From Eledone cirrhosa (lineage: Eukaryota): 64,000 bases of DNA. Made by a program: the position numbers and the translations under genes. The notes beneath the pieces are model-generated. The model saw nothing but the letters and a program-made list of their open reading frames with translations. It had not been told where the DNA came from and did no database searches. Positions 21,001 through 64,000 of this stretch are shown piece after piece. Position 1 is the stretch's first letter, and every line of letters starts with the position of its first letter. Where the stretch lies: the NCBI GenBank assembly GCA_964016885.1, contig OZ024744.1:9672001-9736000 (forward strand). The letters are read 5' to 3'.

Positions 21001-23376
21001 TGGTGTAGTGTAGTGTAGTGTGGTGTAGTGTAGTGTGGTGGGGTGTAGTGTGGTGTACTGTAGTGTAGTGTAGTGTAGTATAGTGTAGTGTAATGTAGTG
21101 TGGTGTAGTGTATTGTAGTATGGTGTAGTGTAGTGTAGTGTAATGTAGTGTGGTGTGGTGTGGTGTAGTGTGGTGTAGCGTGGTGTAGTGTGGTGTGGTG
21201 TGGTGTGGTCTGGTGTAGTGTAGTGTAGTGTGGTGTATTGTAGTGTGGTGTAGTGTAGTGTAGTGTAGTGTGGTGTAATGTAGGCTGGTGTGGTGTACTG
21301 TAGTATGGTGTGGTGTAGTGTAGTGTAGTGTAGTGTAGTGTAGTGTAGTGTAGTGTAGTGTAGTGTAGTGTGGTGTAGTGCAGTGTGGTGTAGTGTACTG
21401 TAGTGTAGTGTGGTGTAGTGTAGTGTGGTGTATTGTAGTGTGGTGTAATGTAGGCTGGTGTGGTGTAGTGTAGTGTAGTGTAGTGTAGTGTAGTGTAGTG
21501 TAGTGTAGTGTAGTGTAGTGTAGTGTAGTGTAGTATGTTGTATTGTAGTGTAATGAAGTGTGGTGTAGTGTAGTGTAATTAAGTGCGGTATAGTGTAGTG
21601 TGGTGTGGTGTGGTGTGGTGTGTAGTGTAGTGTAGTATGGTATATTGTATTGTAATGAAGTGTGGTGTAGTGTAGTGTGGTTTAGTATAGTGTGGTGTCG
21701 TGTAGTGTGGTGTGGTGTAGTGTGGTGTGTTGCAGTGTGGTGTGGTCTAGTGTGGTGTAGTGTGGTGTAGTGTAATGTGGTGTGGTGTGGTGTATTGTAG
21801 TGTGGTGTAGTGTAGTGTGGTGTAGGTAGTGGTGTGTAGTGTAGTGTAGGTAGTGTGGTGTAGTGCAGTGTGGTGTAGTGTGGTGTGGTGTAGTGTAGTG
21901 TGGTGTAGTGCAGTGAAGTGTAGTGTAGTGTAGTGTAGTGTAGTGTAGTGTAGTGTGGTGTGGTGTAGTGTAGTGTGGTGTAGTGCAGTGAAGTGTAGTG
22001 TAGTGTGGTGTAGTGTGGTGTAGTGCAGTGTAGTGTAGTGTGGTGTGGTGTAGTATAGTGTAGTGTGGTGTAGTGTAGTGTAGTGTGGTGTGGTGTGGTG
22101 TGGTGTGGTGTGGTGTGGTGTGGTGTGGTGTGGTGTGGTGTAGTATAGTGTGGTATGGTGTAGTATAGTATGGTGTGGTGTAGTGTAGTGTGGTGTGGTG
22201 TAGTGTGGTGTAGTTTAGTGTAGTGTGGTGTAGTGTGGTGCGGTATGTTGTAGTGTAGTGTAATGAAGTATGGTGTATAGTATTGTAGTCTGGTGTAGTG
22301 TAGTGTGGTGTGGTGTGGTGTAGTATAGTGTGGTGTAGTGTAGTGTAGTATGGTGTAGTGTAATGAAGTGTGGTGTAGTGAAGTGTGGTGTAATGAAGTG
22401 TAGTGTAGTGTAGTGTAGTGTGGTGTATTGCAGTGTGGTGTAGTGTAGTGTGGTGTGGTGTAGTGTAATGAAGTGTGGTGTAGTGTAGTGTAGTGTGGTG
22501 CAGTGTGGTGTGGTGTAGTGTAGTGTAGTGTGGTGTAGTGTGGTGGGGTGTAGTGTGGTGTAGTGTAGTGTAGTGTAGTGTAGTGTAGTGTAGTGTAGTA
22601 TGGTGTAGTGTGGTGTAGTGTAGTGTGGTCTGGTGTGGTCTGGTGTAGTGTAGTGTAGTGTAATGAAGTGTGGTGTAGTGTATTGTAGTATGGTGTAGTG
22701 TAGTGTAGTGTAGTGTAGTGTAGTGTAGTGTAATGTAGTGTGGTGTGGTGTAGTGTGGTGTAGCGTGGTGTAGTGTAGTGTGTTGTGGTCTGGTGTAGTG
22801 TAGTGTAGTGTAGTGTAGTGTAGTGTAGTGTAGTGTGGTGTATTGTAGTGTGGTGTAGTGTAGTGTAGTGTAGTGTAGTGTGGTGTAATGTAGGCTGGTG
22901 TGGTGTACTGTAGTATGGTGTGGTGTGGTGTAGTGTAGTGTAGTGTATTGTAGTGTGGTGTAATGTAGGCTGGTGTGGTGTACTGTAGTATGGTGTGATG
23001 TGGTGTAGTGTAGTGTAGTGTAGTGTAGTGTAGTGTAGTGTAGTGTAGTGTAGTGTAGTGTAGTGTAGTGTAGTGTAGTATGTTGTATTGTAGTGTAATG
23101 AAGTGTGGTGTAGTGTAGTGTAATTAAGTGCGGTGTAGTGTAGTGTGGTGTGGTGTGGTGTGTAGTGTAGTGTAGTGTAGTGTAGTGTAGTGTGGTGTGG
23201 TGTGGTGTATTGCAGTGTAGTGTGGTGTAGTGTAATGAAGTGTGGTGTGGTGTGGTGTGGTGTGGTGTGGTGTAGTGTCGTGTCGCATGGCGTAGTGTGG
23301 TGTTGTGTAGTGTAGCGTGGTGTAGTGTAATGAAGTGTGGTGTAGTGCAGTGCAGTGCGGTGCGGTGTGGTGTGGT
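1..23376 (+). repeat. Pentanucleotide satellite (TAGTG/TGGTG)n, G/T-rich on + strand, with interspersed variant units and kb-scale internal duplications
   Basis: Continuous 5-bp periodicity with variants CAGTG, TAGTA, TAATG, TCGTG. The His/Thr/Tyr/Leu/Pro ORFs on the - strand are translations of this repeat. The array runs off the left edge of the window. Confidence 0.98.
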
Positions 23377-23759
23377 ACACCTCACTTCATTACACTACAC
23401 TACACCACACTACACTACCTCACACTTCATTACACTACACTACAGTACACCCACCACACCACACTACACTACACTACACTACACTACACTACACTACATC
23501 ACACTACACTACCCTACATCACACTTCATTACACTACATCACACCACACTACACCACACTGCATTACACTACACACGACACCACACCACACCACATTACA
23601 CTACACTACACTTCACTACACTACACCACACCATACTACACCACACTACACCACACCACACTACACCACACCACACCACACCACACTACACCACACCATA
23701 CCACACCACACTACACTACACTACACCACACAACACCACACTATACCACACTACACCAT
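23377..23759 (-). repeat. Same pentamer satellite in inverted orientation (CACTA/CACCA on +)
   Basis: Abrupt switch at ...gtgtggt|acacctcacttcattacactacac; C/A-rich pentamers continue to ~23759. Confidence 0.95.
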
Positions 23760-23799
23760 CGTATGTAGCACGATGGCAGTAAGCAACAAATCTACAGAG

Positions 23800-24140
23800 A
23801 TTGTAGTGGAGGCTGGACATCTAGTGTTACCTCGACCACGTGGACGTTCTGAACTCCACTCAATTTTGTAAACCTCCAGACGATTACAGTGGAAACTGGG
23901 CCTCCAGTTAACCCTCTGCCGTCTGTGAACGTTTTATCGTGGGTCCTCAATTCTGTAGAGGTCCAGATTTGAGGGACGGAGAGACTGGACGGTGACAGTG
24001 GAAACTGGACGTCCAGTCTCCAGACAATATACGCCGATGTGAACGTCTTATCTCGGGTCCTCAATTCCGTAGACGTTCAGAGTTGAGGGACGAATGGACG
24101 TCCAGGAAATGGATGGAAAATTGGACTTCATTCAGACAGT
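23800..24140. repeat. Degenerate ~85-115 bp tandem repeat (about 3 units) with internal hairpins; origin unknown
   Basis: Recurring blocks gtgga(a/g)(a/g)ctgg at ~23806/23889/23998, gtg(a/g)acgt, ctcaatt(t/c)(t/c)gta and tgagggacg at ~23970/24084. Perfect palindrome actggacgtccagt at 24004-24017. Confidence 0.7.
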
Positions 24141-24317
24141 GGGGGTGAAGTTAGCTCAAAGTTACGTAGCCCGCTTCGAGTAGATTGTGATGTTTTGGTG
24201 AATGCACAATTTGGGGTCATGTTGCCAATGCCAATGAAACTGAATATTAGTGACTGAGGCCAAAGTATCTGACAACGAAGATGGCCCGTTGCTGTCCAGT
24301 GTCATCGAAATATCTTT

Positions 24318-24900
24318 ATCATTATTTTACGTTCGCTTTCCCTGCCTGCAAGGGTGGGACGGGTCCTATTCAGCACAGCATTTCTCCACTTGTCACGGTC
24401 CTTTCGTCATCTCCGTGAGCTTCATCAATCTGAGGTCTGCTCTCACCACCTCCGCCCATGTTTTTCGTTGTCTTCCTCTACTGAGTCTTCCTTCCACTGG
24501 GATTTCTTGGCACTTCTTTACCCAGTGGTCATCCTCCATGCACATCACATGTCCATACCATCGCAGTATTCTCTCCTGCACACTACAAATTATCCCTATT
24601 ATACAGTTTCCCTCTCAACTCATCCATGCTTGGTCGTTCACGCACATTGACACTGCACATCCAACGGAGCATGCTGGCTTCATTTCTCTCCAGCCGTCAC
24701 ACACCCTCTGCAGTTGCTGCCCATGTCTCACTACAATGCAGCATCGCGCATCTCACAAAGGCATATAATCGGCCTTTCGTACGCAGGGAGAAACCCTTCT
24801 TTGTCAACAGAGGAAGCAGCTCCCTAAACATTTTCCAACCCGTCCTTATTGTAGATACTATGGCCTCGGAGCACCCTCCTCCCTTGCTAATCTGTTCATC
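24318..24900 (-). mobile_element. RTE-clade LINE, 5'-truncated decayed 3' fragment
   Basis: - strand peptides EQISKGGGCSEAIVSTIRTGWKMFRELLPLLTKKGFSLRTKGRLY...MLHCSETWA and QERILRWYGHVMCMEDDHWVKKCQEIPVEGRLSRGRQRKTWAEVVRADL. The RWYGHV...GR.RKTW signature is typical of the RTE ORF C-terminus. Frameshifted; short atc/att-type tail near 24318. Confidence 0.88.
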
Positions 24901-25099
24901 GAAATAGCCGTTGCATATTTCCTCAGCAGGCATCGAGATCTGTGTGAGAAAAGTAAAGTAATGGAGCCGATCTTGAGATCAGACAAAAACTGTTTTCGGA
25001 CAAAAAACTATTTTCTGTTAGCTGCAATATTTGGCAAAAGGTACAAGCTGAAATGAAATGTTTTGTTCAATAACACAACTGTTTCTACTTTTGGCACAA

Positions 25100-25190
25100 G
25101 GGGTCAGCAATTATCTCAGTACATTACTGGTACTTTATTTTATCGACCCCTTAAGGATGAAAGGCAAAGTTAACCTCGGCGGGATTTGAC
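25100..25190 (-). mobile_element. tRNA-derived SINE fragment (octopus-type), left half of palindrome centre
   Basis: - strand reads tcaaatcccgccgaggttaactttgcctttcatccttaaggggtcgataaaataaagtaccagt. This is a B-box remnant followed by the ...gcctttcatcc...ggtcgataaaat...gtaccagt body that I recognise from octopus SINEs. Confidence 0.7.
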
Positions 25191-25199
25191 CCCTTACAG

Positions 25200-25280
25200 T
25201 CTGAGTTCAAATCCAGCCAAGATTAACTTAAGGAGTCGATAAAACAAAGTACCAGTAATGTACTGAGATAATTGCTGACC
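25200..25280 (+). mobile_element. tRNA-derived SINE fragment, right half of palindrome centre (internally deleted)
   Basis: ctgagttcaaatccagccaagattaact...gtcgataaaacaaagtaccagt, with B-box GTTCAAATCC at ~25205. Confidence 0.65.
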
Positions 25281-25482
25281 CCTTGTGCCAAAAGTAGAAA
25301 CAGTTGTGTTATTGAACAAAACATTTCATTTCAGCTTGTACCTTTTGCCAAATATTGCAGCTAACAGAAAATAGATTTTTGTCCGAAAACAGTTTTTGTC
25401 TGATCTCAAGATCGGCTCCATTACTTTACTTTTCTCACACAGATCTCGATGCCTGCTGAGGAAATATGCAACGGCTATTTCG

Positions 25483-25627
25483 ATGATCAGATTAGCAAGG
25501 GAGGAGGGTGCTCCGAGGCCATAGTATCTACAATAAGGACGGGTTGGAAAATGTTTAGGGAGCTGCTTCCTCTGTTGACAAAGAAGGGTTTCTCCCTGCG
25601 TACGAAAGGCCGATTATATGATGCCTT
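25483..25627 (+). mobile_element. RTE LINE fragment duplicated in the right palindrome arm
   Basis: Encodes DQISKGGGCSEAIVSTIRTGWKMFRELLPLLTKKGFSLRTKGRLYDA; reverse complement of ~24757-24900. Confidence 0.85.
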
Positions 25628-25659
25628 GAGGAAATATGCAACGACTATTGCAATAACAT

Positions 25660-25725
25660 AACACATACACTGTCGGTCCAGGAATCGAACCGGTTTGATT
25701 CATGAACGCGAGTTTAATACCAAAC
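25660..25725 (-). mobile_element. Probable tRNA-derived SINE head remnant
   Basis: - strand gtttggtattaaactcgc...ggttcgattcctggacc: an A-box-like segment followed by B-box GGTTCGATTCC. No full cloverleaf. Confidence 0.4.
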
Positions 25726-26056
25726 AGGAAAAATTTGAAAAGAATTTTACAAGAAAAAATGAAAACGGAATCAAATTCGATGTTTAAGAAGCTTCTTTTA
25801 ATAGATCTTTCAAGAGAGACAAAAATATTTTAAAATACAAATAAAACGATTCAGCGTTTATCTCTCAATATATATTCGTTCTAATTCTAAATAAATAGCA
25901 ATAATTTCGGTAAATATACTTTCCGTGTCTCTAAATTACATTTCAAAAGAAATAAAATGTTATTTTGACTTTAGGAAAATATCATACAGCTGAGCGAAAC
26001 TTTTTTTTTTTTGAAAAAAAAGGAAGATTTTTCCAGTACGACATTTTTCCACGGCT

Positions 26057-26062
26057 TTTATT
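26057..26062 (-). terminator. Candidate polyadenylation signal AATAAA of the protamine gene
   Basis: tttatt on +, about 14 nt past the stop codon, followed on - by a T-rich tract near 26014-26021. An alternative ATTAAA lies at 25797-25802. Confidence 0.5.
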
Positions 26063-26075
26063 TCGTGTTAGCGTT

Positions 26076-26438
26076 TCAACATTTCCTCCTGCATCGTTTC
26101 TTTTTCCTTTTCGGACACCTCCTTTTAGGTCTCCGTTTACAACACCTTAGCTTCTTCCTTGGACATGGGCATGGGCATCTCCTTCGCCTTCTACAACACT
26201 TGCTACGTCTTCTACAACATTTTTTCACTATTCTGCTGCATCTACGTCGACATCTTCGACATCTTTTTTTTGATCTTGATCTACATCGTGGTTTACATCT
26301 TGGTCTACATCGTGGTTTTGAACCACAAAACGAAGTTACAATTTTACATGGAGATGGCAACGCCGCCATTACAGTTGACGGCTCTTGTCTGCCCTTACGC
26401 CCCTGAAGGGTCTCCTTGCGAATTTCATGCGTTCCCAT
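26076..26438 (-). CDS. Cysteine-rich sperm protamine precursor (Eledone-type protein E), 120 aa, intronless
   Basis: ATG at 26438, TGA at 26078-26076. Residues 37-120 (FCGSKPRCRPRC...KKKRCRRKC) are 84 aa with 31 Arg, 16 Lys, 19 Cys (22.6%), 8 Pro and no acidic residues. This fits the length and Cys content I recall for E. cirrhosa cysteine-rich protamine. Synonymous codon variation between peptide repeats (CGA/AGA/AGG, AAA/AAG) indicates real coding rather than simple repeat. Confidence 0.93.
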   Translation of the reverse strand: MGTHEIRKETLQGRKGRQEPSTVMAALPSPCKIVTSFCGSKPRCRPRCKPRCRSRSKKRCRRCRRRCSRIVKKCCRRRSKCCRRRRRCPCPCPRKKLRCCKRRPKRRCPKRKKKRCRRKC

Positions 26439-26550
26439 TCCTTTTTACTAAGTTCATAAGATAAAAAGGGGAAAATAAAAAAATCTTCCTTCTTGTGTGA
26501 GTAACGGTCTCGAAATGTGACAACGCTTTGAAAGTTTGACAATTGTATTA

Positions 26551-26566
26551 TGACGTCACTGACGTA
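26551..26566. promoter_or_regulatory. cAMP-response element TGACGTCA plus adjacent CRE-like TGACGTA
   Basis: Perfect palindromic CRE at 26551-26558 and TGACGTA at 26560-26566, 113 bp upstream of the protamine ATG. Inr-like TCACATT on - at 26520-26514. Confidence 0.65.
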
Positions 26567-26574
26567 TTAGGATA

Positions 26575-27212
26575 TTATTGGTTGTTTGGTTGGTTGACTG
26601 GTTGGCTGGTTGGCTGGTGGCTAATTGGCTGGCTGACTGGTTGGTTGGCTGGCTGATGGTTGGTTGGCTGGTTGGGTAGCTGGTTGGTTGTTTGGTTGGC
26701 TGGCTGGTTGCATGGTTCACTGGGTGACTGGTTGGTTGGCTGGTTGACTGGTTGGGTGGTTGGTAGTTTGGTTGGCTGGCTGGTTACATGATTCACTGGG
26801 TGACTGGCTGGTTGGTTGGTTGGTTGACTGGTTGGGTGGTTGGTTGTTTGGTTGGCTGGCTGGTTGCATGGTTCACTGGGTGACTGGTTGGCTGGCTGGT
26901 TGGTTGGTTGGTTGGCTGGGTTTCTGGTTGGTTGGCTGGTGTGGTGGCTGGTTGGCTGGTTGTTTGGGTGGCTGGCTGGTTGCATGGTTCGCTGGGTGGT
27001 TGGATGGTTAACTGGGTGACTAGTTGGTTGGTTGGTTGGTTGGTTGGTTTGTTGGATGGTTCGCTGGGTGACTGGTTGGCTGGTTAGTTGGTTGGCTGGC
27101 TGACTAGTTGGTTGGCTGGCCGACGGTTGGTTGGCTGGTTGGGTGGCTGGTTGGTTGTTTGGTTGGCTGGCTGGTGGGATTGTTTGCTGGGTGGCTGGTT
27201 GGTTGGCTGGCT
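26575..27212. repeat. Compound tetranucleotide microsatellite (TGGT/TGGC)n with a recurring catggttcactgggtgact block
   Basis: 4-bp periodicity. The block recurs at ~26711, 26787, 26867, 26983 and 27055. The Gln/Pro/Asn/Thr and Trp/Leu/Gly ORFs are artefacts. Confidence 0.95.
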
Positions 27213-27545
27213 GCTCTTTTTAATACAGCTGTCATCCTTCATACGCATCACATGTCCATACCAATGCAACCGCCTCTCCTGCACACAGCATTTGATTCTT
27301 CTTATGCTCAGTCTCTCTCTCAATTCATTTATGCTTTGTCGTTCGCGATTATTACTATTACACATCATCTAATATTGCCGTTTGTATACAAGCATCATAC
27401 AATCTGCCTTTCACTTTTAAAGAAAAACCTCTTGTGGCTAACAGCGGTATTAGTCCACGGGACCTTTTCCATCCCGTTCTATCGCTGGCTTCTGTACTTT
27501 CAGAACACCCTCCTCCACTGCTAATTTTGTCACCCATTCGCAATT
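27213..27545 (-). mobile_element. Second, more diverged RTE LINE fragment
   Basis: Peptides GDKISSGGGCSES...TGWKRSRGLIPLLATRGFSLKVKGRLYDACIQTAIL and INELRERLSIRRIKCCVQERRLHWYGHVMRMKDDSCIKK. Internally deleted and cut off at the microsatellite. Confidence 0.85.
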
Positions 27546-28430
27546 TTCAACTGCCACTTTTATGCAAATTTTTTTTACTTCCGTTGTCACTCTTGTCTTC
27601 ATAAAAACAGTGACTATATTTCCATTATTTATTTTCAGAATAATTGATTATGAATAATTTTGAACCTCCAAATTTGTGGAAGCGACACAGAGTTCTTCTT
27701 GGAATCCGCACCGGGAGGACAAATAAGGAAATTTCAGACTTTCTCAGCGTCAGCAGGAGAATGGTGGAAAAGGTAAAAAAGGAATTGGAAGATTCAGGAT
27801 TCGACTACGAAGCAACATCAGAGAGGAAAACACATGATCGACGATCTGACGCCTTCAGAAAGCCCGGGTTCGTCGCTGTAGTTCAGGATATCATCAACAA
27901 TGAACCTAGCAAGTCGATGTGTGCCATTGCAAGGGAGAAGGGCGTGGATGAAAAGCTCATTAGGCTGGTGGTACATGAAGACATTCACTACGTTTCATAC
28001 AAGATGAGGAAAGAACAATTTATGTAAAAGAAAAGTGACTGAAGCACGCAAAGAAGCTGATCAACAAGTTGAAACACCCACTGGAGCCAGACTTGCTGTG
28101 GTTTTTTCTCCAACGAGAAAAACTTCTGCCAAGACCAGAAGATCAACTCCCAGAACAACAAGTGGTTCGCTGTCTCATCCAAAGACATGCCCAGAGTCAT
28201 GCAGACAAAGTTTCCAGCGACAATATTGGTCTTAGGTGTCGTCAGAGGTAGCCGGTTCCGAGGCCGCCTTGAGGCTGTCATCAAAGCCAATGGCGGGTTT
28301 ATCGAGTGAGATTGAAAGAACAAGTCATGAAGACAAACTTAGCCAAGTTTGATAAATATATCTTTAAAAATAAAACTACTGTTATTTTTTCCTAGACAGT
28401 AATCTTTCGAGCAAATATCGGCCGCACCCT
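27546..28430 (+). mobile_element. Tc1/mariner-superfamily DNA transposon (maT/DD37D-like), defective
   Basis: Transposase remnant plus a right end ...gcaaatatcggccgcaccct resembling a TIR. No matching left TIR is visible, so the left boundary is approximate. Confidence 0.75.
27650..28309 (+). pseudogene. Transposase pseudogene
   Basis: Two HTH-like segments (TNKEISDFLSVSRRMVEKVKK; SMCAIAREKGVDEKLIRLVVHED), then stops and frameshifts at ~28025-28110. Next comes FSNEKNFCQDQKINSQNNKW...KFPATILVLGVV fused directly to the C-terminal RFRGRLEAVIKANGGFIE*. The first catalytic Asp is changed (FSDEK to FSNEK) and the rest of the catalytic core is deleted. Confidence 0.82.
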
Positions 28431-31400
28431 TTCTCTCTCAACACATCACATGTCCATACCATCTCAGTCTTCTCTCCTGTACACTACAACTTATCCCTCT
28501 TATACACAGTTTATCTCTCAACACATCAAATGTCCATACCATCTCAGTCTTCTCTCCTGTAGACCACAGCTTATCCCTTTTATACACAGTTTCCCTCTCA
28601 ACTCATCACATGTCCATACCACCTCAGTCTACTCTCCCACACACCACAACTTATCCCTCTTATACCCAGTTTCTCTCTCAACTAATCACATGTCCATACC
28701 ACCTCAGTCTACTCTCCCACACACCACAACTTATCCCTCTTATACACAGAATCTCTCTAAACTCATCACATGTCCACAACATCTCAATCTTCTGTCCTAC
28801 TCACTACAACTTATCCCTCTTATACCCAGTTTCTCTCTCAACTCATCACATGTCCATACCATCTCAGTTTTCTCTCCCACACACTACAACTTATCCCTCT
28901 TATACACAGTTTATCTCTCAACACATCACATGTGCATACCATCTCAGTCTTCTCTCCTGTTGACCACAGCTTATCCCTTTTATACACAGTTTCTCTCTCA
29001 ACTCATCACATGTCCATACCACTTCAGTCTTCTCTCCCACAAACCACAACTTATCCCTCTTAAACCCAGTGTCTCTCTCAACACATCACATGCCCATACC
29101 ATCTCAGTCTTCTCTCCCACACACCACAACTTATCCCTCTTATACCCAGTGTCTCTCTCAACACATCACATGTCCATACCATCTCTGTCTTCATTCCTAC
29201 ACACTACAACTTATCCTTCTCATACACAGTTTCTCTCTCAACACATCAGATGTCCATACCATCTCAGTCTTCTCTCCCACACACTACAACTTATCCCTCT
29301 TATACACAGTTTCTCTCTCAACTCATCACATGTCCATAGCATCTCAGTCTTCTCTCCCACACACCACAACTAATCCTTTTTATACACCGTTTCTCTCTCA
29401 ACTCATCACATGTCCATACCATCTCAGTGTTCTCTCCCACACACCACAACTTATGCCTCTTATACCCAGTTTCTCACTCAACTCATCACATGTCCATACC
29501 ATCTCAGTCTTCTCTCCCACACACTACAACCTATCCCTCTTATACACAGTTTCTCTCTCAACACCTCACATGTCCATACCATCTCAGTCTTCTCTCCCAC
29601 ACACCACAACTTATCCCTCTTATACACAGTTCCTCTTTCAACACATCACATGTCCATACCATCTCAGTCTTCTGTCCCACACACTACAACTTATCCCTCT
29701 TATACACAGTTTCTCTCTTAACTCATCACATGTCCATAGCATCTCAGCCTTCTCTCCCCCCACACTACAACTTATCCCTCTTATACACAGTTTCTCTCTC
29801 AACTCATCACATGTCCATAGCATCTCAGCCTTCTCTCCCCCACACCACAACTTATCCCTCTGATACACAGTTTCTCTCTTAACGTGTCCATACCATCTCA
29901 GTCTTATCTCCTGTACACCACAATTTATCCCTCTTATGCACAGTTTCTCTCTCAACTCGTCACATGTCCGTACCATCTCAGTCTTCTCTCCCACACACCA
30001 CAACTATTCCTTCTTATACACAGTTTCTCTCTCAACACATCAGATGTCCATACCATCTCAGTCTTTTCTCCCATATCGCCCTTATACACCGTTTCTCTCT
30101 CAACTCATCACATGTCCATACCATCTCAGTGTTCTCTCCCACACACCACAACTTATGCCTCTTATACCCAGTTTCTCACTCAACTCATCACATGTCCATA
30201 CCATCTCAGTCTTCTCTCCCACACACTACAACCTATCCCTCTTATACACAGTTTCTCTCTCAACACCTCACATGTCCATACCATCTCAGTCTTCTCTCCC
30301 ACACACCACAACTTATCCCTCTTATACACAGTTCCTCTTTCAACACATCACATGTCCATACCATCTCAGTCTTCTGTCCCACACACTACAACTTATCCCT
30401 CTTATACACAGTCTCTCTCTCAACTCATCACATGTCCATAGCATCTCAGCCTTCTCTCCCCCCACACTACAACTTATCCCTCTTATACACAGTTTCTCTC
30501 TCAACTCATCACATGTCCATAGCATCTCAGCCTTCTCTCCCCCACACCACAACTTATCCCTCTGATACACAGTTTCTCTCTTAACGTGTCCATACCATCT
30601 CAGTCTTATCTCCTGTACACCACAATTTATCCCTCTTATGCACAGTTTCTCTCTCAACTCGTCACATGTCCGTACCATCTCAGTCTTCTCTCCCACACAC
30701 CACAACTATTCCTTCTTATACACAGTTTCTCTCTCAACACAGCAGATGTCCATACCATCTCAGTCTTTTCTCCCATATCGCCCTTATACACCGTTTCTCT
30801 CTCAACTCATCACATGTCCATACCATCTCAGTCTTCTCTCCCACACATCACAACTTATCCCTCTTATACACAGTTCCTCTTTCAACACATCACATGTCCA
30901 TACCATCTCAGTCTTCTGTCCCACACACTACAACTTATCCCTCTTATACACAGTTTCTCTCTCAACTCATCACATGTCCATAGCATCTCAGCCTTCTCTC
31001 CCCCCACACCACAACTTATCCCTCTTATACACAGTTTCTCTCTCAACTCATCACATGTCCATAGCATCTCAGCCTTCTCTCCCCCCACACCACAACTTAT
31101 CCCTCTAATACACAGTTTCTCTCTTAACGTGTCCATACCATCTCAGTCTTCTCTCCCCCACACTACAACTTATCCCTCTTATACCCAGTGTCTCTCTCAA
31201 CACATCACATGGCCATACCATCTCAGTCTTCTCTCCCACACACTACAACTTATCCCTCTTATACACAGTTTCTCTCTCAACTCATCACATGTCCATACCA
31301 TCTCAGCCTTCTCTCCCCCACACCACAACTTATCCCTCTGATACACAGTTTCTCTCTTAACGTGTCCATACCATCTCAGTCTTATCTCCTGTACACCACA

Positions 31401-61171: not shown

Positions 61172-63960
61172 TCAAGGATCAATTTCCCCCTCGTCCCTCT
61201 GCATATGAAAGTCTGCCGTCCAGGTCGGTGGTCTACGACTTCGTTGCGATCTTCGTAGTATTGGGGCAGGGCTCTGGGTTTCCACCTCATCTTGGGTTTC
61301 CTCTTCCTCGGAGTCCGTCGACACAGTGATTCTTCTTACATCCAGGACATGACGTGGTACCCCGTCCACGGACACATTGTTCTTTGAATTTACGGCCGTC
61401 ACCGTTCCCCTTCCCCATTGAGATGTGCACCGTGCATCTGTAGGCTTAACCCAGACTTCTTCGCCCCCCTGCACGAATGCACTCTCTCTCCCCACTGGCC
61501 GTTGTGGTGGCGTGCACGGGTGCCGCCACTCGTATTTGAATACTGCTCTGTGTGGCACCGATTCCTCGACCTGTCCAACCCGAGGGGACATATCGTACCA
61601 GAACACTGCCTCCATTGGTGAGATATGACCCCGCTCCGCCATTGCCTTGATCGTTGGGTGGTGTCGCTCCACGATTCCATTCCCGCTCGGCCTGTGCGCT
61701 GCTCTGAAGAAACGGTCCACCTTCCATCCCTCGAGCATCCCCCTCAGTGCCTCCGAGCGGAACGCTGCGCTGTTGTCCATCAGCAGTTCATCCACAGGGC
61801 CCCGCTCCAAGAACACCTCTCTCAACGTCCGCACGATTTCCTCGGCCGTTCCAGTCTTCATCTCCCTCCATATCGCCACTCGACCTGGTCCACAGTCGAC
61901 CATCGAGAGGTACGTTCCCTGCCGGTAGTGCGTCACATCCACCGCTAATCGCTTCCAGTCGCGATCCACCGGGAGGCTTCCCGTTTCGTGTACACCCGGG
62001 GCGGGATCAATGGACTGACATCGGACGCAGCCTCTAACCACCCCCCGAACACTGTGTCTGCTAACGTCCGAGTCGATTCTCCTGGCTAGGAACAGGCTCC
62101 TATCCACCCCCATGTGGTGCATGTCATGCAACCCCTTCAGGTCTAACTCGGTCAGCCGACACACGGCAGCTATCTCATCCTCTACCTCCCCCGGCGCTTC
62201 CATCCAGGCTTTCTTCACTCTAGTTAAGATGTCCGCCCTATTTTTCTCTGAAGGCACGAACACTACGCTCAGGTCGAACTCGGTGGCCAGCTCTCGTAAC
62301 GTTCCCAGGCGGCGCTTTATCAGCATCTCCGCCGCGCCTCTCGTTCGCACTCTCTTCTCATTGGTGAGCACTGATCTTACCCATCCGAGTACGGTAGCCG
62401 AGTCGGTGCGTATCTCGATGGTGCGCAGCCCCCACCGCAGAGCGAGGTTCACCCCTCTCAACACCGCGTCCAGCTCGGCCACATTGATGTGGCTGCAGTC
62501 GTCCTTCTTTCTAAGTCAGGCTGCATCCTCGACCTCAACACCTCCTATCTCCAACGTGACACCCAGCGCTATGCTGCTGGCATCGCACCATACGGTCCCG
62601 CTCCGTGATTTGGGAACGTACCAGCGTCCCCGCACTGGGTCGTCGGCCTTCACCCTCCCCACGATCTCCTGCATCATGGCCACCGTTCTCTCTCCCACTC
62701 TGTCACTCCAAGTCACCCCTCCCGCTCGTCTCTTGACATAGCTGCATGCCGTCCGGAGCCACCCAGCGATCGGGTAGTGACCCACCAGCTTTCCACACAC
62801 CGAGAAAAGCTCCCGCCTATTCATACTTGGGCCCAGTTCCGGAACTTCGTTTCCCCTCTGGAACACCAAAACGCCCGTCTTATCTCGCCGTAGCCTAAGT
62901 CCCAGCGCGGCTCCTCCCTCCAATGCTTCTGATGGCTTCGCAGTCAGTCCATACCTCTGCAAATGGCTCGTGACCTCCGCCGTCGACACCACCGACTCGT
63001 CCACTAGGATGTCGTCAATGTAGGAGTTAGTAGCCCTCTTTATCCTGTCGGCCCTCCCCAGAGCGGTCTTGAGGACCGCCGCCATGATCTTCGGTGCGGA
63101 GCTCAGTCCGAAACCGAGCCTGGTCAGGCAATATGTCCGGCCCTAAAAACCTGACCAGCTGATACCGCCAGAGCTTCTCATCTATATGCAACTGCAAGTA
63201 AGCCGACTTTAGATCCACGATCGCGTCATGCGTCTCCACTCACGCAGGGTTTCCCCACAGACATCCGTGACCTCGCCACCCGTGTGGCATGACACGTGCT
63301 CGTTCAGCTCTCGATAGTCCAGCACCGGCCTCACCTTGCTCTTCGTGGGTTGCACCACCGCCATTAACGGAAATACTCCGCACTTCAGCTCCTCCTTCCA
63401 GGGAAGCAGTATGCCCTCTTCGATCCATCTCTCTACTTCTCGCTCCTAGCATTTCCCTTCAATGTGTGTTGATAGTAGCCCACTTTGGTCTTCAGTGTTG
63501 GTGGTTCTCCCTTCCAGTACCACTCAACAACCCATCGCTGCCCATCAAACACGGCCTTGAAGTCTTTGTCCTGTACAGTGTAAGCGGGGTATTCCTCCTC
63601 GTGAGCCTTCTGGTTCTCATGACGTGCACTCACAGCGCATACCGATGCAGCGGCGCCAAACGACACACCGACATTGTTCACCGTGACGCCCCCTAGACGG
63701 CCAATCGCGTCCATGCCCATAACCACGCCGATCCCATCCACCACACTGTCTACCACGATGGCGGAAAGCCTTATCGTCCTTCCCCGTACCGCTATTTCCA
63801 TCTCGCTGCGACCTCGGCATTCAATTTTCCTGCCGTCGACTGCCCTTACGCTGCTCTTCCCTCCCCACCTCTGCGCCACCCCCGCGGTCATCAGTGTCGT
63901 CGTACAGCCCGTATCCACGAGGGCTCGCTGTGGCTTCCCCCTCACGAAGACTTCCACCAC
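61172..63960 (-). pseudogene. pol: Gypsy pol (PR-RT-RNaseH-IN), disrupted
   Basis: Pieces 63433-63960 (PR), 63027-63239 and 62516-63085 (RT/RH), and 61172-62482 (RH/IN). Frameshifts near 63445, 63225 and 63140, and an in-frame TGA at 62518-62516 (EDAA*LRKKDD, probably from TGG). Confidence 0.9.
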
Positions 63961-64000
63961 GGGCAGCGCCGCTACTCGTAAGGGGCAACTACCGGCGCAG

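Follow-up and report, generated by a model that had tools for sequence, protein, structure and literature searches.

A doubled cAMP response element upstream of a putative cysteine-rich protamine gene in an octopod

Introduction

The closest described system is the protamine gene of the squid Loligo (Doryteuthis) opalescens, which Lewis et al. reportedly characterised in 2004 as an intronless gene whose promoter carries a cAMP response element (CRE), a TATA box and a CAP site. These elements are said to be like those of vertebrate protamine genes, the choice between homology and convergence having been left open. The DNA analysed here, a stretch of 64 kb that we call the window, resembles the squid locus in holding a putative intronless cephalopod protamine precursor gene with a CRE. 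The squid protamine is dominated by arginine, however, whereas the octopod product is rich in cysteine, and its gene has two adjacent CRE sites and no credible TATA box. Given the squid precedent, a CRE in a cephalopod protamine promoter is probably not new. The literature search found no text on a cephalopod protamine promoter and no account of the gene for the Eledone cysteine-rich protamine; most subscription papers lay outside its coverage, and the result is no evidence of novelty. A term search of PMC6341066, PMC3710222, PMC5122968, PMC13251019, PMC11202624 and PMC11753710 gave nothing on the promoter, and PMC10454534 offers general background on CREM.

Rodent Prm1, which is controlled by CREM-tau and GCNF, is alike in having a CRE-type site near the transcription start, at -64..-57 (PMC2853129 supplement), and in that a short fragment drives spermatid expression. 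It differs in its CRE, a variant without CpG that is accompanied by nuclear-receptor sites and followed 24 nt on by a real TATA box (counted on the printed sequence); here a CpG-containing consensus CRE is doubled and there is no TATA box. More generally, PMC2853129 places the CRE-like sites of mammalian haploid promoters at -50 +/- 20 from the start and reports that fragments of ~100 nt are enough for spermatid expression in mice. It describes the sites of mammalian testis promoters as CpG-free CRE-like variants, often forming composite CRE/nuclear-receptor sites, with the consensus CRE under-represented and CpG-containing CREs typically somatic. The same paper presents the mGPDH promoter as TATA-less with a CAAT box, which is a further likeness. 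In the supplement, the CRE-like sites of t-ACE, mGPDH, Pdha2 and Sp10 lie at -51 to -73, a range to be compared with the candidate positions given below; the sites of rodent haploid promoters are mostly non-consensus, and that of Prm2 is far off, at -201..-194 (PMC2853129 supplement). For mouse spermatids, PMC3091680 reports that CREM occupies the protamine locus at the round stage, that a full CRE is present in only 13% of CREM-bound sites, and that ~1% of CREM-occupied promoters are regulated, with neither CRE nor TATA predicting regulation.

Results

The window is nearly all repeat, with three arrays mapped. The arrays are separated by remnants of LINE-like and SINE-like elements, a transposase-like remnant and ~0.9 kb of AT-rich unique DNA (25660-26577), which carries one gene; the LINE-like and SINE-like labels were assigned from the motifs of these remnants. 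In searches against Pfam, the LINE-like and SINE-like remnants matched no family, and the transposase-like remnant matched a helix-turn-helix only weakly, with a score under the curated cut-off. No second copy of the gene was found in the 64-kb window. A search of 23300-28500 against Rfam gave 18 matches, none of them within 25230-27190, and since all were under their gathering scores a structured RNA family near the gene was rejected. The coordinates of the features discussed below are collected in Table 1.

Table 1. Features of the putative protamine locus and its surroundings, in positions of the window
Feature	Position	Strand	Remarks
5-bp-unit array	3-23357		
AATAAA polyadenylation signal	26057-26062	-	Followed by a U-rich stretch
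ORF of the putative protamine precursor	26076-26438	-	Intronless; 120 codons; rich in Arg, Lys and Cys
Putative mature protamine	26079-26330	-	Residues 37-120; 84 aa, with 31 Arg, 16 Lys and 19 Cys
Upstream ORF	26425-26457	-	10 codons; out of frame; weak start context; overlaps the main ATG
Predicted RNA hairpin	26440-26469	-	Ends 1 base before the main ATG; upstream ATG in the loop
Pyrimidine tract	26458-26483	-	With TTAG at 26451-26448, resembles a splice acceptor
Alternative Inr-like CTCACAC	26495-26501	-	Candidate start A at 26498
Inr-like TCACATT	26514-26520	-	Candidate start A at 26518
TAATACAA	26543-26550	-	AT-rich, TATA-like motif of the earlier note; more likely to be the 3' flank of CRE1
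CRE1, perfect palindromic CRE TGACGTCA	26551-26558	.	With its flanks (26550-26559) fits RTGACGTCAY
CRE2, TGACGTA	26560-26566	+	Half-site plus; centre 9 bp from that of CRE1
CCAAT	26577-26581	-	At the proximal edge of the microsatellite; weak; second copy at 26628-26624
Degenerate (TTGG)n microsatellite	26578-27210	.	Bounds the non-repeat DNA upstream of the gene
Satellite, 80-bp unit	28430-60878		~32 kb
LTR-retrotransposon remnant	61172-64000	-	Broken pol region; protease, DUF7047, RNase H-like and integrase matches

The gene in the unique DNA appears to be that of an Eledone-type cysteine-rich protamine, with its full precursor. Arg and Lys together make up 56% of residues 37-120, and Cys 22.6%; the product is small and basic, with clustered Arg and abundant Cys, like the cephalopod cysteine-rich protamines. 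In length and cysteine count these residues agree with the cysteine-rich protamine of Eledone cirrhosa, which has 84 residues and 19 Cys, and it is from these two figures that the identity of the gene is inferred. The first 36 residues resemble a leader that is cleaved off; it would shorten to 13 residues if translation begins at a second in-frame ATG (26369), the context of which equals that of the first (26438). Cleaved leaders are common among protamine precursors (PMC12216123). The published E. cirrhosa protein is characterised as a cysteine-rich cephalopod protamine (Gimenez-Bonafe et al. 2002, PMID 12113475), to which the gene described here would add the N-terminal leader of 36 (or 13) residues.

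Homologue searches did not extend this assignment. With the whole protein as query none of 54 candidates reached E 0.01, with the leader region (residues 1-48) there was no candidate, and with residues 37-120 none of 207 candidates reached E 10. The protein had no match among 1.84 billion representatives and no Pfam family, and exact sequence look-ups found none of the five sequences sought. The top cluster in the Atlas was 'Sperm protamine P1', at 0.82 and 0.83, values below 0.9 that make it a lead only. Downstream of the gene, the sense strand has a genomic run of 12 A (26001-26012), 45 nt past the AATAAA, with a risk of internal oligo-dT priming. Origin of the gene as a retrocopy ending in this run was rejected, there being no direct repeat immediately past the A run and no target-site duplication; two 8-mers shared around the retrocopy candidate are AT-rich and lie farther from the run.

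The earlier note on this DNA had described a perfect CRE, with a second TGACGTA 1 bp from it, in ~136 bp of non-repeat DNA. Both sites are present. CRE1 matches the consensus cAMP response element octamer as given in PMC2853129 and PMC3091680, is the sole exact consensus CRE in the 64 kb, and lies 113-120 nt upstream of the ORF, immediately upstream of the only apparent host gene in the window. The gap is indeed short, with a true length of 139 bp (26439-26577) up to the microsatellite; the description 'ultra-compact' fits this non-repeat gap but does not correspond to a mapped promoter boundary.

Chance seldom produces such an arrangement. Dinucleotide shuffling of the 136 bp, repeated 100,000 times, produced a full CRE 262 times, the extended form RTGACGTCAY 40 times, and a full CRE accompanied by another half-site 26 times; a separate run of 20,000 shuffles gave 57 with a full CRE and two with a full CRE and a second TGACGT. 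A perfect 8-bp palindrome of any kind, on the other hand, appeared in 44,603 of the 100,000 shuffles, so that the significance of the CRE hinges on its being the motif anticipated for a protamine gene. Shuffling the whole window was uninformative (17.8 one-mismatch CRE matches expected, four observed), as satellite makes up most of its length. Of the motifs considered, the CRE pair stands out as a genuine signal and the core-promoter motifs do not, and on this sequence evidence the pair probably helps to switch on the protamine gene. CRE1 and CRE2 are probably too close to hold two dimers simultaneously. A cruciform at the pair was rejected, since folding it as DNA yields no more than -3.4 kcal/mol.

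The 3' flank of CRE1 invites comparison with Prm1. CRE1 and the six bases that follow it are identical to the rodent Prm1 CRE and its flank at 12 of 14 nt, and this is the sole 14-mer in the window with no more than three mismatches from the Prm1 element. The probability of such a flank match by chance is 0.013, or 0.032 with the bZIP-favoured base held fixed, in both cases uncorrected for the several comparisons that were possible. The TAATACAA bases may thus reflect a binding preference common to the Prm1 flank rather than homology, although this is suggestive only. Both CRE1 and CRE2 have a central CG, and so differ from the CpG-free variants of mammalian testis promoters.

The same bases, listed in the earlier note as an AT-rich motif, were assessed as a TATA-like box. 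They are present, abutting CRE1 with zero gap, but on a TATA matrix (maximum 11.0 bits) they score -5.6 bits, a value equalled or bettered by 527 of 3,892 flanking 8-mers, and the poor score rules them out as a TATA box. The further observation that no canonical TATAAA is present holds throughout 23700-28500. Nor is there a match to TATAWAWR at ~-31, the best nearby 8-mers scoring 1.5 and 0.2 of 11.0 bits, or a TATA box at -30 of the candidate starts at 26518 and 26498. The highest-scoring TATA-like 8-mer of the region is TAAAAAGG (26447), with 2.6 of 11.0 bits.

The Inr-like TCACATT noted earlier likewise exists, but as an initiator signal it is at chance level: it fits YYANWYY, a pattern with three occurrences in the region that also turns up in 95,227 of 100,000 shuffles, but not the fly consensus TCAKTY. 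A start at 26518 would put CRE1 at -40..-33 and CRE2 at -48..-42, and one at 26498 would put them at -60..-53 and -68..-62, the latter arrangement being nearer to the spacing of Prm1 and t-ACE. CRE1 falls inside the -50 +/- 20 zone for these two putative starts and outside it for starts at 26560, 26537 and 26417, and the argument from position is circular because the start is itself derived from chance-level Inr matches. The CCAAT is weak evidence since a single change in the CCAA repeat creates it. Separately, the CRE1/CRE2 junction spells TCAGT on the minus strand (26558-26562), an initiator-like motif of protostomes. Use of TCAGT as the initiator was considered unlikely, as it would place CRE1 inside the transcript and the microsatellite at -30.

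The 5' leader of the putative transcript is predicted to have a local fold of some stability. The hairpin before the start codon is predicted at -6.8 kcal/mol, a value matched by five of 200 shuffles, with stem pair probabilities of 0.97-1.0, whereas the stability of the whole 80-nt leader is ordinary (16 of 200 shuffles). The ATG in the hairpin loop, at 26457, opens the short upstream frame. Part of the leader (26479-26494) also forms a 16-nt inverted repeat with the 3' flank (26017-26032), the duplex energy of which is reached by 10 of 2,000 shuffles. The 3' arm lies 25-40 nt past the AATAAA; it may be cut off from the mRNA, and would be retained only if cleavage occurs beyond ~26017.

Discussion

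Within the window, the DNA upstream of the gene consists of the microsatellite, a transposon remnant, the 32-kb satellite and the LTR-element remnant, and these repeats leave little other unique DNA to hold a promoter. We favour, with moderate confidence, a reading in which a CREB-family factor drives a proximal promoter that lacks a TATA box, transcription starts at ~26518 or 26498, and a hairpin in the leader contains an upstream AUG. The 139 bp would then serve as proximal promoter and 5' leader to an intronless octopod gene, in all likelihood from Eledone, that encodes a cysteine-rich protamine precursor. CRE1 would be occupied by a bZIP dimer of the CREB family, for which the only CREB1 of molluscs is a likelier candidate than CREM; CRE2 would increase occupancy as an accessory or substitute site, a second dimer at the same time being improbable. 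Transcription would begin in spermatids, 33-53 nt past CRE1 and without a TATA box, and the hairpin, whose loop contains the out-of-frame AUG, could make translation weaker or later. Among the points against this reading, an out-of-frame AUG in the leader would be a handicap for an mRNA expressed at a very high level, and the acceptor-like TTAG shares first place among 189 AG sites.

CREM and ATF1 are vertebrate duplicates of one ancestral CREB, and ACT, the CREM coactivator, is a vertebrate gene. Because CREM and ACT are not known from outside the vertebrates, the octopod promoter may function in the manner of CREM targets and yet not belong to them; the literature search gave nothing usable on CREM/CREB paralogues in molluscs. 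The earlier note had seen in this region a likeness to CREM control of vertebrate protamine genes. That comparison gains from the low chance frequency of the CRE, from its optimal flanks and from its position in the -50 +/- 20 zone (for the candidate starts), and it loses from TATA and Inr motifs that are unsupported, from mammalian sites that are CpG-free, and from a CRE being no predictor of CREM regulation. A parallel to the vertebrate protamine promoters is plausible. The likeness would most readily be accounted for if an ancient CREB/CRE module had been put to use independently in the two groups, and not by homology of the promoters.

The alternatives differ in which part of this reading they give up. 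The CRE may be functional through another bZIP factor, such as ATF2/ATF7 or a Jun-ATF heterodimer, or through general activation by CREB, with spermatid specificity supplied elsewhere, by other factors or by chromatin, and with no CREM-like post-meiotic switch. We regard this as unlikely. The TGACGTA of CRE2 and the TA flank 5' of TGACG on the plus strand speak against it, both being in line with the preferences of CREB/CREM/ATF1, as does a spacing that, for the candidate starts, matches the haploid-promoter zone. In its favour are the binding of TGACGTCA by the ATF-2 family, which is found in the germ cells of flies and mice (PMC3444692), the somatic rather than testis character of consensus CpG CREs in mammals (PMC2853129), and the finding that CREM dependence is not predicted by a CRE (PMC3091680). 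At the other extreme, the pair might have no regulatory role and have arisen by chance, perhaps with a short local duplication: CRE1 and CRE2 form a near-repeat of 9-bp period for which one duplication is enough, and some 8-bp palindrome is to be expected in nearly half of the shuffles. This we consider very unlikely, the CRE being the element anticipated for protamine promoters and one that shuffling seldom yields, and more seldom still with optimal flanks.

Two further alternatives move the start of transcription. If the region forms the last part of an intron, with the pyrimidine tract and TTAG (26451-26448) as the acceptor, the promoter and a non-coding first exon would lie far upstream and the CRE pair would be an intronic enhancer or a bystander. 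The AG at 26449-26448 has a pyrimidine fraction of 0.81, joint highest of 189 minus-strand AG sites (28430-25601), and is preceded by 35 AG-free bases; the upstream AUG at 26457 would be spliced out; and donor-like sites at 27711 (8.1 bits) and 28427 (7.3 bits) are the best of 96 upstream GT (to 28430). These donors sit in transposon remnants or at the satellite edge, however, and the 37 kb beyond consist of repeats. The other top acceptor (27744) is antisense to the transposase remnant, which indicates that chance yields such scores, and the predicted hairpin, the 5' arm of which the pyrimidine tract doubles as, supplies a non-splicing reason for part of the tract. We judge the intron decidedly unlikely. 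A short intron within the leader was rejected, as the best splice donor inside the 136 bp scores 1.6 of 12.8 bits. The most improbable proposal, in our view, is a start at ~26417, ~30 nt past TAAAAAGG, with translation from the ATG at 26369 to give a 97-aa precursor and with the CRE pair at -140. It would eliminate all upstream AUGs, the context of the 26369 ATG is as good as that of 26438, the TATA-like 8-mer is the top one of the region, and in germ cell lines of the mouse CREB sites are concentrated around -150 (PMC3091680). That 8-mer is nevertheless weak, 26417 has no Inr match, and codons 1-23 are open and coding-like, with 54% GC compared with 28% just upstream.

An extension of our preferred reading, a CREB-driven TATA-less promoter, is that octopods independently evolved the whole programme of mammalian Prm1, with a CREB1 switch, stored mRNA and a minimal cassette. 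In such a programme a spermatid activator isoform of CREB1 would fire the minimal promoter through an extended element, the CRE with a TAAT flank like that of rodent Prm1, and the mRNA would be silenced by the leader hairpin and upstream AUG until the cysteine-rich precursor is required, possibly aided by pairing between the leader and the 3' end. The 0.9-kb unique island between giant satellite arrays would form a self-sufficient cassette for spermatid expression. We think it unlikely that the parallel goes so far.

If the CREB-driven promoter is confirmed, this octopod case would join the one reported for the squid, and would suggest that coleoid cephalopods in general have their protamine genes under CRE control, and that such control either predates or parallels vertebrate CREM. 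It would bear on whether CREB-family transcription in spermatids is ancestral to bilaterians or convergent. The locus offers a candidate spermatid promoter of ~140 bp, together with what appear to be the gene and the leader peptide for a cysteine-rich protamine of the Eledone type; the CRE pair promoter is no new kind of element.

Finally, the surroundings of the gene have features of their own. Its ~0.9 kb of unique DNA lies inside a 4.7-kb transposon-rich island, with satellite arrays of 23 kb and 32 kb on either side, a location that is possibly heterochromatic and unusual for a spermatid gene. The 80-bp satellite unit matches LINE-like remnants at 24543-24628 and 27243-27328 by 86% and 72%, a resemblance suggesting that the 32-kb array arose by expansion of a fragment of retrotransposon coding region. 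An inverted repeat of SINE-like and LINE-like DNA (24762-25155 and 25227-25620; 394 bp, 99% identity, 71-nt spacer) is either a recent foldback duplication or an assembly artefact. The 5-bp-unit array changes orientation, being of AGTGT type up to 23357 and then of CACTA type at 23383-23756.
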